A stretch of 64,000 nt of DNA from Escherichia phage 235Ecol030PP. Position numbers and translations under genes: made by a program. Positions 47,727 through 49,784 of the stretch are shown one piece after another. Under the pieces are notes generated by a model. That model was not told where the DNA came from, ran no database searches, and worked only from the letters and a program-made list of their open reading frames with translations. The stretch is from the sequence record PP355091.1; one strand, written 5' to 3'. Position 1 is the first letter of the stretch. The number at the start of each line of letters is the position of its first letter.

Positions 47727-48304
47727 TTATATACTGATTCCGTAAGGGTTGTTACTTCATCTATTTTATACCAATGCGTTTCAACCATTTCACGCTTGCT
47801 TATATCATCAAGAAAACTTGCATCTAATTGAACCGTTGAATTAACACGATGCCTTTTAACGATGCGGGAAACAACTACTTCATCCGCATAAGGTAACGCA
47901 GCGTATAACAGAGCAGGCCCACCAATTACACTTACTTTAGAATTCTGATCAAGCATAGTCTCGAATGGTGCGTTAGGACTTGACACTTGAATTTCGCCGC
48001 CAGAAATGTAAGTTATATATTGCTCCCAAGTAATATAGAAATGTGCTAAATCGCCGTCTTTAGTTACAGGATAATCACGCGCAAGGTCACACACTACAAT
48101 ATGACTACGACCTGGAAGTAATGTAGGCAATGACTGGAACGTTTTAGCACCCATAATCATAATTGTACCTTCGGTACGAGCTTTAAAATTCTGGAGGTCA
48201 TTTTTAACTCGCCCCCATGGTAAACCATCACCTAAACCAAATGCTAATTCATTAAAGCCTTCGACCGTTTTAGTTGGAGAATAAGCGAATACCAATTTAA
48301 TCAT
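47723..48304 (-). CDS. frd: dihydrofolate reductase
   Basis: 193 aa as T4 Frd; DHFR-like sequence. Confidence 0.92.
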
Positions 48305-48549
48305 TACGCAAAACCCCTTTCAAGAAACCATTCAGTGGCTTTATTAGCGTCAAAGAATAATTCTTCATATGTCTTTTCTTTGTTTTCAAAGACTGTCACA
48401 CAAACACGTTGACATTCTCCACAGTATTCTTCTGACATGCTCAAAGCGTCAGAAAACATTTCATTAAATTCATTTAAATCAGGATTATGCAATGCGTTAA
48501 AAATTGCATAATCGAATTCATCATTCATAAATTCAAATACAAAAATCAT
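48304..48549 (-). CDS. hypothetical 81-aa protein with CxxC motif (frd-32 cluster)
   Basis: ATG start; CGECQRVC. Confidence 0.45.
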
Positions 48550-48559
48550 ATTATTTTCC

Positions 48560-48802
48560 TTAAACAGACTTTTTCACAATTTTCCAATCAGCTTTAAACT
48601 GTTCAACGTCAGAATGGTAAATCCAAAATCCTGCGCTTTCTCCGTCTTCATAAAGAGGACATCCATCGCATTCATCTTCCCATCCCATATCACGTAAAAG
48701 ATGTTCAGCTTTTTCAACAAGTTCAGAATCTTTACCGATGATATTAAAATACCATTTACCTCTAACTTCTGAATCTTTGATGCTCTGGCGTTGTAATCTC
48801 AT
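48560..48802 (-). CDS. hypothetical 80-aa protein (frd-32 cluster)
   Basis: ATG start; CDGC motif. Confidence 0.45.
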   Translation of the reverse strand: MRLQRQSIKDSEVRGKWYFNIIGKDSELVEKAEHLLRDMGWEDECDGCPLYEDGESAGFWIYHSDVEQFKADWKIVKKSV

Positions 48803-48862
48803 TTTATTCTCCTCAGTAGTTGATAGGGTAATAGTATCACACTACTACCCTGTTGTAAACAA

Positions 48863-49123
48863 TTATTTTTGAATTTTATCGAGCCACTTACCAAGCTTAA
48901 TCATTTCTTTAGTAGCCTTTTCCATACTTCTGAACTTAACCAATAGAGGATAGGTATCGACACCCATAACTAAACTGGTTACAAGACTGTGTTCACCCAC
49001 AAGCCATAACGAATACGTTTGAATATCGAGTCCGTAATTTCTGTCTTTATGGACCCGTACACCCATCACTTCAAATTTCTCACTAGCTTTTTCTACCGCA
49101 TCCAGGAAATCATCTTTAGTCAT
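48863..49123 (-). CDS. hypothetical 86-aa protein (frd-32 cluster)
   Basis: Start set to ATG 49123 (AAGG SD), 2 nt after the upstream ORF stop. Confidence 0.4.
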   Translation of the reverse strand: MTKDDFLDAVEKASEKFEVMGVRVHKDRNYGLDIQTYSLWLVGEHSLVTSLVMGVDTYPLLVKFRSMEKATKEMIKLGKWLDKIQK

Positions 49124-49124
49124 A

Positions 49125-49511
49125 TTAGGCCTTAAAAGTTTTTCGCAAAAGTTCAATGATTTCATCTACATTGTTTTCGTCAACAATGCAGTGAATTTTT
49201 GTTACGCCAGAAACCTTGTCTTTGACTTCATCCTCTTCAGAAGTTGGTTCTTTATATTCGCGGAAACAATAAAACTCTTCTTCACTAAGTTCAAAATAAT
49301 CATCACCCATACCATCATCATTATAGATTTCACCGTTAGCACAAATGATTTCGGTTACATAATCAAAGCCATCTAAACTTGATATTGATTTAACTTCAAA
49401 CCAACCACCATTTTCTTGAATGATGCCGACCATATTAGCATTTGATGAACTAATATCAATGAAAGATTTAATACGGTGTGGATTTAACTCGTATTTTTTG
49501 CCGATTTCCAT
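49125..49511 (-). CDS. hypothetical acidic 128-aa protein (frd-32 cluster)
   Basis: Start set to ATG 49511 (GAGGA SD); hairpin upstream. Confidence 0.45.
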   Translation of the reverse strand: MEIGKKYELNPHRIKSFIDISSSNANMVGIIQENGGWFEVKSISSLDGFDYVTEIICANGEIYNDDGMGDDYFELSEEEFYCFREYKEPTSEEDEVKDKVSGVTKIHCIVDENNVDEIIELLRKTFKA

Positions 49512-49556
49512 TTTGATTTTCCTCATTTTAATAGGGGCTTAATAGCCCCTTGATAA

Positions 49557-49784
49557 TTATTGTTCAATCAATCCCATGTAAAATTCTGCGTCTTCAGAAT
49601 CCATACCATCACAATATTCATTAGCCATAAAGCGGGTGAGGTCTTCAAGAGGACCTTCAATAACGATTTGAATACTCCAAAACTTAGAATCTTGTACACT
49701 TGTGATACTAAGTTCAGGATAACGATTACGAATAATTTCTTCAATATATTCAAAATCAACGATGTCAATATCAACTTTAGCCAT
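49557..49784 (-). CDS. hypothetical acidic 75-aa protein (frd-32 cluster)
   Basis: ATG start. Confidence 0.45.

Follow-up and report, generated by a model that had tools for sequence, protein, structure and literature searches.

The frd–32 interval of Escherichia phage 235Ecol030PP: a variable early-gene block that phage T4 appears to carry in reduced form

Phage T4 (NC_000866, T4p240-242) annotates only three genes, frd.1 (243 nt), frd.2 (387 nt), and frd.3 (228 nt), between frd and gene 32. In the 64,000-nucleotide stretch of Escherichia phage 235Ecol030PP (PP355091.1) analysed here, referred to as the window, the corresponding interval (48304..49784) contains five packed minus-strand ORFs of 81, 80, 86, 128, and 75 aa. 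A sequence-only reading of the window had listed these five ORFs, regarded them as possibly two more than T4 has, and suggested that this may be a hyperplastic region with extra cargo. Does the interval carry genes newly gained by this phage, or has T4 lost them? The ORF listing and the annotations of related phages confirmed the five ORFs, and alignment of the window with T4 showed both extra ORFs as gaps in T4, whose record holds three ORFs at this locus and not five.

The raw ORF calls on the minus strand were 48304..48549 (81 aa), 48560..48802 (80 aa), 48863..49165 (100 aa), 49125..49526 (133 aa), and 49557..49784 (75 aa). The 100-aa ORF was shortened to 86 aa by placing its start at the ATG at 49123, one base past the frd.2 stop, and the 133-aa ORF was shortened to 128 aa by using the ATG at 49511, the same start as that of T4 frd.2. 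Both choices agree with the gene annotation in related GenBank records. The features of the block and its flanks are as follows, the promoters, terminator, and hairpins being predicted from consensus and conservation.

47723..48304: frd, flank of the block (ORF listing).
48304..48549, minus strand: ORF A, 81 aa, pI 4.05, phrog_3183; adjoins frd, without a T4 counterpart.
48560..48802, minus strand: frd.1 orthologue, 80 aa, pI 4.94, Pfam PF17438 (DUF5417).
48825..48860, minus strand: second predicted T4-type early promoter, before frd.1, including a stem-loop; GTTTACA, N17, TGATACTAT.
48863..49123, minus strand: ORF C, 86 aa, pI 7.95, phrog_4423; between frd.2 and frd.1, without a T4 counterpart.
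49125..49511, minus strand: frd.2 orthologue, 128 aa, pI 4.34, T4-type allele, Pfam PF03197 (FRD2).
49533..49550, minus strand: predicted hairpin between frd.3 (75 aa) and frd.2 (128 aa); GGGGCTATTAAGCCCC.
49557..49784, minus strand: frd.3 orthologue, 75 aa, pI 4.05, Pfam PF05798 (Phage_FRD3).
49828..49857, minus strand: predicted T4-type early promoter before frd.3; GTTTACA, N17, TGGTACTAT.
49889..49907, minus strand: predicted intrinsic terminator after gene 32; GGGGACCCTAGAGGTCCC followed by a T run.
49930..50835: gene 32, flank of the block (ORF listing).

Profile searches matched all five products to existing protein families (E ≤ 2e-34). Frd.3 matched Phage_FRD3 with 135.6 bits (cutoff 28.1) over positions 1-75 of 75, Frd.2 matched FRD2 with 132.9 bits (cutoff 29), and Frd.1 matched DUF5417 with 115.6 bits (cutoff 23.9) over residues 1-78 of 80; their identities to the T4 proteins were 100%, 98%, and 100%, respectively. 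ORF A and ORF C had no match to a Pfam family. They matched phrog_3183 (E = 3.9e-43, profile positions 1-80 of 80) and phrog_4423 (E = 8.5e-50, positions 1-86 of 86), respectively, both of which bear the PHROG label 'unknown function'. Four of the five products are acidic, ORF C being the fifth, so that the two strongly acidic products mentioned earlier were an undercount. Furthermore, the ORF A stop overlaps the frd start (TAATG) and the ORF C ATG lies one base after the frd.2 stop (TAA-T-ATG), so that ORF A and ORF C are translationally coupled to frd and frd.2, respectively.

The terminator scan indicated a hairpin after gene 32 with 7 pairs, 5 of them G-C, and a T-rich tail, the sequence of which was kept in all 15 related loci compared. 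This predicted terminator is the upstream edge of the block and, with its hairpin 32 nt upstream of the promoter before frd.3, the putative stem-loop half of a PeSL-like terminator/early-promoter unit. The promoter scan gave the site before frd.3 a sigma-70-like match with an extended TG, and the same site carries a T4 early promoter annotation in phage SA21RB. Both early promoters (49828..49857 and 48831..48860) fit the published PST/T4 early promoter consensus TTTACW-N17-TAYWAT (PMC4122927) as GTTTACA-N17-TACTAT, and the pattern GTTTAC-N14-16-GNTANNNT had 8 matches in the window, where 0.44 would be expected, and all 8 lay on the minus strand. The -10 region of the promoter before frd.1 is situated inside a 12-bp stem-loop (48825..48851; fold -15.2 kcal/mol), in which compensatory substitutions were observed in other phages (GGGTA/TACCC to GGCTA/TAGCC). 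Indels abut this element, namely the end of ORF C and the start of the T4-type mini-ORF cassette; judged by its sequence, the predicted promoter together with the stem-loop is a PeSL-like composite motif. A MotA-dependent middle promoter within the interval was dropped as a candidate, the MotA-box pattern having no match there.

The intercistronic hairpin that had been pointed out between the last two ORFs was borne out by folding (-12.9 kcal/mol, z = -2.75; 1 of 200 shuffles was as good). Its G-C stem is kept in nearly all of 15 loci, with a loop that varies in length and sequence. It is followed by no T tract and was called a terminator by the SA21RB annotators; its probable role is partial termination or the stabilisation of a short frd.3 transcript at the 3' end. 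Taken together, the block is the frd-to-32 accessory segment of a Tequatrovirus, with two early transcription units on the minus strand. The first unit would run from the gene 32 terminator through the early promoter, frd.3, the hairpin, and frd.2 to ORF C, and the second from the early promoter within the stem-loop through frd.1 and ORF A, continuing into frd.

The variability of the interval was compared in 16 related loci. The fullest layout, found in several Tequatroviruses, is frd.3, frd.2, C, frd.1, X, A, frd, in which gene X (110 or 119 aa, phrog_3566) lies between frd.1 and ORF A; only X is missing from the window. Of the 8 conceivable combinations of the optional genes A, X, and C, 6 were found, the full set and the lack of all three among them, which upholds the designation of the interval as a hyperplastic region. 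Beyond these genes, a 22-codon mini-ORF cassette was present in some loci only, an unrelated 80-aa gene occupied the A slot in one case, and Frd.2 occurred as no fewer than three alleles. Counted with duplicate GenBank/RefSeq entries included, Frd.1 was present in 1417 phage records (513 at an identity of at least 90%), ORF A in 469 (435 at at least 90%), X in 478, and ORF C in 351, the last from Straboviridae, Phapecoctavirus, and Drexlerviridae.

The DNA annotated as intergenic between frd.1 and frd in T4 was found to be a degenerate 5' stub of X that runs into the final bases of ORF A; an interpretation of this stub as a remnant of ORF A itself was rejected. At the position of ORF C, all 9 C-less loci compared had one and the same version of the junction at the DNA level. 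Frd.2 ends with KTFKK* in T4 and ESh17, which are C-less, and with KTFKA* in five aligned C-plus Tequatrovirus proteins. The tail of the C-less version, which corresponds to ORF C at its 3' end, marks a fusion junction between frd.2 and the ORF C tail that looks like a microhomology deletion. The X/A scar, this common C-less junction, and the homologues in the same slots of Gaprivervirus SP18 strongly indicate that T4, without X, A, and C, is a reduced form of a combinatorial early-gene block with two T4-type early promoters. We infer that genes of the block would have been lost, regained, and swapped via recombination between co-infecting relatives, PeSL recombination included, with breakpoints at short conserved boundaries, namely RBS-ATG junctions of nearly identical sequence, the PeSL-like motif of promoter and stem-loop, and the frd.2 3' end, which stays constant.

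The opposite direction, towards which the extra cargo of the sequence-only reading points, would be that the extra ORFs are foreign DNA recently gained by an ancestral T4-like locus of three genes. Both ORFs are indeed absent from T4, and homologues of ORF C occur in phage families that are unrelated (Phapecoctavirus, 59-65% identity; T1-like Guelphvirus, 55%; Klebsiella Webervirus, 42-47%), which indicates horizontal movement at some time in the past. However, T4 keeps the decayed X start and the last ORF A bases, all C-less phages share the single junction at which frd.2 ends with the ORF C tail, and homologues of A, X, and C stand in the same order in SP18. ORF A is also present in approximately 85% of the records with T4-level Frd.1 (435 vs 513), and neither ORF is anomalous in composition, the GC content being 29-38% across the block and similar in the flanks. 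Recent gain is therefore already largely refuted and very unlikely, and the term extra cargo does not suit genes found in hundreds of records, in a layout that had already been deposited. It is even harder to believe that ORF A, ORF C, or both are no genes but open frames that occur by chance in AT-rich DNA between genes. Both are short and without a Pfam family, and the Shine-Dalgarno sequence of ORF C is weak (AAGG), but both were intact in every related locus compared, as was the ORF of each other orthologue. Variable sites at codon positions 1/2/3 numbered 6/5/16 in ORF A, 3/6/26 in frd.1, and 3/0/11 in frd.3, an excess at the third position; those in ORF C, numbering 1/2/3, were too few for such a judgement. 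The PHROG matches (E ≤ 4e-43), the full-length divergent homologues (37-65% identity), the AlphaFold2 models with pLDDT of 94 for ORF A and 87 for ORF C, and the tight packing with stop/start coupling to frd and frd.2 likewise argue against chance. ORF A and ORF C are genuine genes, accessory and conserved.

Another possibility arises from the CxxC-type motifs noted earlier, CGECQRVC in ORF A and CDGCP in Frd.1: these two products could be zinc-binding or redox proteins, possibly tied to frd, td, and nrd as redox partners or complex subunits. For Frd.1 the motif was substantiated, since C45 and C48 of CDxCP were invariant in 5 homologues down to 48% identity and across Tequatrovirus, Gaprivervirus, Moonvirus, Pseudotevenvirus, and Webervirus homologues, the distant ones gaining a third Cys (CPC). 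The translational coupling of ORF A to frd, which holds in SP18 as well as here, would also fit such a role. For ORF A the motif lost its significance, as most SP18-type homologues (37% identity, full length) have N, E, and A in place of C43, C46, and C50, and one of these homologues has Cys at the first position. A zinc-ribbon or CxxC metal-binding protein is accordingly not supported for ORF A, a set of four Cys/His ligands not being conserved in its family. Frd.1 has two invariant Cys and no conserved His, a second invariant Cys/His pair not being found among the 5 aligned homologues, so that a monomer would have no four-ligand site. Moreover, the 3.2-kb neighbourhood of the siphophage Frd.1 homologues contained no annotated frd, td, or nrd, and no thioredoxin-like or zinc-finger family was matched. 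A zinc-binding or redox function is, in our estimate, unlikely.

With the block regarded as an accessory segment reduced in T4, we turn to the function of its products. Tentatively, all five may be small soluble proteins of the first minutes, dispensable for core replication; most likely they would bind and modulate host factors or host defences, a role generalised from the accessory genes of other phages, and such a role would account for their presence varying between phages. Sequence searches of the PDB with all five proteins gave nothing below E = 0.3, and NCBIfam gave below-threshold chance matches only. PADLOC-DB, a database of defence and not of anti-defence proteins, gave a single hit, of ORF A to Cas8b, which at 13 bits (E = 0.007) is a chance match, and none for the other four. 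The literature on frd.1, frd.2, frd.3, and the DUF and PHROG identifiers contained functional information for Frd.2 only and expression data for frd.3, the mRNA of which ranks with the most abundant T4 RNAs that carry an NAD cap (bioRxiv 10.1101/2024.04.04.588121). The five genes were absent from the supplement of one accessory-gene screen and unmentioned in the accessory-gene and essentiality papers checked.

Of the five products, only Frd.2 offers a functional lead, in that its N-terminal domain is LSm-like and might have to do with RNA. T4 Frd.2 has been described as an LSm-like-fold protein of the GoF/MotB.1/Frd.2 family, whose N-terminal five-stranded bent antiparallel beta-sheet is LSm/SH3-like (Kim et al. 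2025, PMC12152347), and the Frd.2 of the window gave a weak PHROG match to the goF family (E = 6.8e-4). The effect on RNA stability was shown for the GoF(D25Y) mutant only and not for Frd.2, and a frd.2 amber mutant is viable (PMC12152347); knock-down of frd.2 lowers T4 fitness (PMC11879866).

As modelled, ORF A and ORF C are compact folds without recognisable relatives. The ORF C model has an alpha-beta3-alpha topology, and Foldseek found nothing for it in BFVD at E ≤ 0.001. When the ORF C alignment profile was searched against 1.8 billion representative proteins, 12 clusters were obtained, all of short proteins of similar length and none annotated, with no cellular homologue informative on function. 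A KDRNYGLDxQTYSLW loop is strongly conserved. In the Phapecoctavirus, Guelphvirus, and Webervirus loci, ORF C always stands alone among small early genes and its neighbours belong to unrelated PHROGs; the idea that it travels with Frd.2- or Frd.1-like neighbours was dropped, as tblastn of these loci gave only ORF C. ORF C is therefore worth flagging as a small gene that crossed phage family boundaries. It is conceivable, though rather doubtful, that ORF C is a self-contained mobile early gene of orphan fold and that ORF C, perhaps with ORF A, is an inhibitor of defences or host factors that T4 lost. If so, T4 would serve as a natural 'knock-out' that is sensitive, and its plating on some wild hosts would change once the gene is restored. 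The account of the block as a two-unit accessory segment that is reduced in T4 and varies by recombination is in our opinion probable.

The extra ORFs are common, catalogued genes that T4 lost through deletion, and the finding is real but ordinary and already known. As a discovery it has little consequence, since hundreds of deposited T4-like genomes, along with the PHROG families, already contain the genes, their order, and the variability of the interval. It identifies the T4 reference as a deletion derivative at the frd–32 locus, and because the T4 frd.1-frd DNA is a gene scar, gene counts relative to T4 are a poor test of novelty. For tests of accessory genes against defence systems, the relatives also form a clean natural panel that differs in the presence of A, X, C, and the mini-ORF and in the Frd.2 alleles.

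Among known phages, T4 shares with the window the order of frd.1, frd.2, and frd.3, the promoters, the hairpin, and the spacing, with proteins 98-100% identical. Relative to T4, the window has ORF C in addition, placed after frd.2 and ahead of the frd.1 promoter, as well as ORF A, which separates frd.1 from frd; it lacks the cassette with the hydrophobic 22-codon mini-ORF upstream of frd.1 and the X/A scar of T4. The identical five-ORF layout, frd.3, frd.2, C, frd.1, A, frd, occurs in 215Ecol030PP (PP328843) and BYEP01 (OR757453), the proteins of which are 96-100% identical to those of the window with point differences only; megablast against 215Ecol030PP covered 100% of the interval at 97.8%. 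The BYEP01 record also has an extra 1146-nt CDS across gene 32 and frd.3, probably an artefact of annotation or sequence. TadeuszReichstein (Bas43), PhiZZ6, Ec_O157kw, and SfPhi01 have the gene order and regulatory motifs of the window plus X, giving six ORFs, and T6 resembles them with X present and C absent; these phages differ from the window in carrying other Frd.2 alleles, with 44-71% identity in the N-terminal domain. Gaprivervirus SP18 has homologues of A, X, and C in the corresponding slots and in the same order, the difference being that a second frd.2 copy replaces frd.3.

With respect to the GoF/MotB.1/Frd.2 family, the Frd.2 of the window is 98% identical to the T4 protein described in PMC12152347, and its LSm-like N-terminal domain is the part swapped between phage alleles, with the C-terminal 30 residues constant. 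The interval also resembles the hyperplastic regions and PeSL cassettes of T4-like phages, for which shuffling has been described (Arbiol et al. 2010, PMC2839356; Comeau et al. 2014, PMC4122927), in that small early ORFs variable between close relatives are edged by stem-loop and early-promoter motifs. In the published PeSL the stem-loop precedes the promoter, whereas at frd.1 of the window the stem-loop overlaps the -10 box; unlike in the PeSL model, several breakpoints here (X, A, and the Frd.2 N-terminal domain) lie at RBS-ATG junctions or inside frd.2. The phenomenon agrees with the published picture of T4-type hyperplastic regions.

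The window comes from a Tequatrovirus, a T4-like phage. A database search with the 3.4 kb around the frd-32 interval matched 806 phage records, none of them identical; in 323 the match covered 80% or more of the query. Five minus-strand ORFs of 81, 80, 86, 128, and 75 aa lie between frd (47723..48304) and gene 32 (49930..50835), as the sequence-only reading had described; the starts of the 86-aa and 128-aa ORFs are as in the GenBank records of relatives.

48304..48549, minus strand: ORF A, adjoining frd, 81 aa, phrog_3183, without a Pfam family
48560..48802, minus strand: frd.1, 80 aa, Pfam DUF5417
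48863..49123, minus strand: ORF C, between frd.2 and frd.1, 86 aa, phrog_4423, without a Pfam family
49125..49511, minus strand: frd.2, 128 aa, Pfam FRD2
49557..49784, minus strand: frd.3, 75 aa, Pfam Phage_FRD3

That reading had also counted possibly two ORFs more than in T4. Since frd.1, frd.2, and frd.3 are the only genes annotated in the frd-32 interval of NC_000866, and ORF A and ORF C were gaps in the pairwise alignment of the window with T4, both the observation and the count were correct. The products of frd.1, frd.2, and frd.3 far exceeded the Pfam thresholds and were 100%, 98%, and 100% identical to the T4 proteins, respectively; ORF A matched phrog_3183 with E = 3.9e-43 and ORF C matched phrog_4423 with E = 8.5e-50. 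Four of the five products are acidic (pI 4.05-4.94), and ORF C, at pI 7.95, is close to neutral. The cysteine motifs noticed earlier were both found, as CGECQRVC in ORF A and CDGCP in Frd.1. The CxxC of ORF A was not conserved among its homologues, and the CDxCP of Frd.1 was invariant in distant homologues, without a second ligand pair.

The interval was then fetched from 16 relatives and each ORF was classified, which indicated that the locus is a combinatorial block. The fullest Tequatrovirus layout, frd.3, frd.2, C, frd.1, X, A, frd, was observed in TadeuszReichstein/Bas43, PhiZZ6, Ec_O157kw, and SfPhi01; gene X (phrog_3566, product of 110 or 119 aa) lies between frd.1 and ORF A. Six of the eight possible presence-absence combinations of C, X, and A were seen, including all-present and all-absent. 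T6 has the order frd.3, frd.2, frd.1, X, A, and in ESh17 the A slot is filled by an unrelated 80-aa gene (phrog_4308). By tblastn, ORF A was present in 469 phage records, with ≥90% identity in 435, as against 513 records for Frd.1 at that identity; thus, ORF A occurs in approximately 85% of T4-level relatives, and T4 belongs to the minority. ORF C was found in 351 records and gene X in 478, and the same five-ORF layout has been deposited for phages 215Ecol030PP and BYEP01. The genes and their layout are therefore already known from public genomes and family catalogues. The idea of a hyperplastic region with extra cargo was partly borne out: the interval is indeed hyperplastic and exceeds the T4 set by two genes, but the cargo is not new and T4 is the deletion derivative. 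A 1146-nt "gp32-like" CDS in the BYEP01 record (OR757453, locus 3555..4700) spans gene 32 and frd.3, with frd.3 also annotated as an overlapping CDS of its own; an error in sequencing or annotation probably abolished the gene 32 stop.

Several comparisons argue that T4 is the reduced form at this locus. Gaprivervirus SP18, of another genus, carries 32, frd.2a, frd.2b, C (93%), frd.1, an X-like gene, an A-like gene (37%), and frd, in the same order as Tequatrovirus. The 71-nt frd.1-frd spacer of T4 (NC_000866 145691-145761) shares its opening RBS and ATG with gene X; approximately 63 nt then align to the X 5' end, apart from a 9-nt deletion, and contain an in-frame stop, before the sequence jumps to CGTAATG, where the end of ORF A overlaps the start of frd. 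This "intergenic" spacer is thus a pseudogene scar of X joined to the end of ORF A. Furthermore, all nine C-less loci compared have a single junction, AAAACTTTCAAAAAGTAGTTTACA, with Frd.2 ending in KTFKK-stop, whereas the ending is KTFKA-stop in the C-containing Tequatroviruses aligned. Judged from these endings and from the ORF C 3' end (AAAATTCAAAAATAATTGTTTACA; AAAATTTAAAAAGTAGTGTACA in SP18), the junction looks like the product of a deletion across a short homology, AAAA(C)TT, that frd.2 and ORF C share at their ends. No base-composition difference from the flanks was detected in ORF A or ORF C, which also fits a reduced T4. The window itself lacks X, and the sequence at that point, GGAAAATA|ATATG, could have arisen by a precise deletion between two similar RBS-ATG junctions but does not prove one.

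The following signals were predicted on the minus strand.

49907..49889, minus strand: gene 32 terminator
49857..49828, minus strand: T4-type early promoter downstream of that terminator
48860..48831, minus strand: second early promoter, upstream of frd.1, with its -10 within a 12-bp stem-loop
48851..48825, minus strand: the stem-loop at the frd.1 promoter (12-bp stem, -15.2 kcal/mol)

The pattern GTTTAC-N14-16-GNTANNNT gave 8 matches in the window, exclusively on the minus strand, versus 0.44 expected, and the SA21RB annotation labels the corresponding sites T4 early promoters; no MotA-box pattern matched inside the frd-32 interval. The frd.1 promoter stem shows compensatory substitutions in other phages, and the unit is flanked by ORF C on one side and by the site of a T4-type mini-ORF cassette on the other. 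PeSL (promoter-early stem-loop) motifs have been proposed as mediators of modular shuffling in T4-like phages (PMC4122927, PMC2839356), and the composite units of the window fit them. The cassette, of approximately 70 nt, lies between the frd.1 promoter and frd.1 in T4 (site in NC_000866 146005-146142, between frd.2 and frd.1), SA21RB, L14, PYPS2T, and two metagenomic contigs; it is absent from the window, and T6 has a gap of equal size there. It contains its own Shine-Dalgarno and a 22-codon hydrophobic mini-ORF, MFAPYIMAAVMLVCLYLLIKAC, unannotated in NC_000866. The differences between phages are nearly all synonymous, suggesting that the mini-ORF encodes a real small membrane peptide.

The hairpin noticed at 49533..49550 does separate frd.3 from frd.2 (-12.9 kcal/mol, z = -2.75). 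In nearly all of 15 loci compared, its stem is conserved and its loop varies, and the hairpin is not followed by a T tract. It may delimit a short frd.3 transcript, which would fit a report that places frd.3 mRNA among the most abundant NAD-capped T4 RNAs (bioRxiv 10.1101/2024.04.04.588121). One base separates the frd.2 stop from the ORF C start, and the ORF A stop overlaps the frd start, indicating that both extra ORFs are translationally coupled to their neighbours.

The two extra products were modelled with AlphaFold2, giving an alpha-beta3-alpha topology for ORF C (pLDDT 87) and beta-beta-alpha-beta-beta-alpha for ORF A (pLDDT 94); neither had sequence relatives in the PDB. ORF C belongs to a small phage-only family, whose members form 12 clusters at 50% identity in a set of 1.8 billion representatives. 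Its homologues in Phapecoctavirus, a T1-like Guelphvirus, and Klebsiella Webervirus show that it has crossed phage family boundaries; no Frd-type neighbours were found in these loci, where it stands by itself amid small early genes. Webervirus siphophages have homologues of both Frd.1 (DUF5417, at 48% identity) and ORF C (at 40%), within small-early-gene blocks adjoining a DNA methyltransferase gene (vB_KpnS-MUC-5.2, 1501..1782; KOX1, 2501..2767), so that at least two genes of the T-even block have been exchanged with Drexlerviridae.

Published information was found for Frd.2 alone: PMC12152347 describes an LSm-like N-terminal domain, predicted by AlphaFold and common to Frd.2, GoF, and MotB.1, as well as an amber mutant that is viable, and a dCas13d knock-down screen of T4 picked out frd.2 as the only "Fit" gene of unknown function (PMC11879866). 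At least three Frd.2 alleles were distinguished (window 49125..49511, minus strand; comparison loci L004, L005, L007, L012, and L016). Identity is 44-71% over their first ~95 residues, which include the putative LSm-like domain, and the last 30 residues and flanking DNA are identical; this is an allelic swap of that domain and suggests diversifying pressure. By analogy with other accessory genes of phages, all five products most likely modulate host factors or defences early in infection and are dispensable; it seems rather unlikely that T4 has lost, with ORF C and perhaps ORF A, a factor for counter-defence or host takeover.

The neighbouring genes also differ from T4. The space between frd and td is filled exactly by a basic ORF of 68 aa (47520..47726, minus strand; pI 10.3, phrog_9550), whose start overlaps the frd stop (ATGA) and whose stop adjoins the start of td. 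In T4, frd and td overlap and leave no room for a gene in this slot; T6 and TadeuszReichstein carry another ORF there, of 115 aa, which the TadeuszReichstein record labels a putative homing endonuclease. A group I intron (46701..46981, minus strand; Rfam RF00028, 73.8 bits versus a gathering score of 50) of only ~300 nt interrupts the td gene (exons 46969..47520 and 46341..46655, minus strand); it lacks the I-TevI homing-endonuclease ORF, whereas the T4 td intron encodes I-TevI. The homing-endonuclease gene segG, located between 32 and 59 in T4, is absent from the corresponding spacer of the window (50836..50934); gene 59 (50935..51588) begins 99 nt after gene 32, and the last 151 residues of its product are 100% identical to the portion of T4 gp59 compared.
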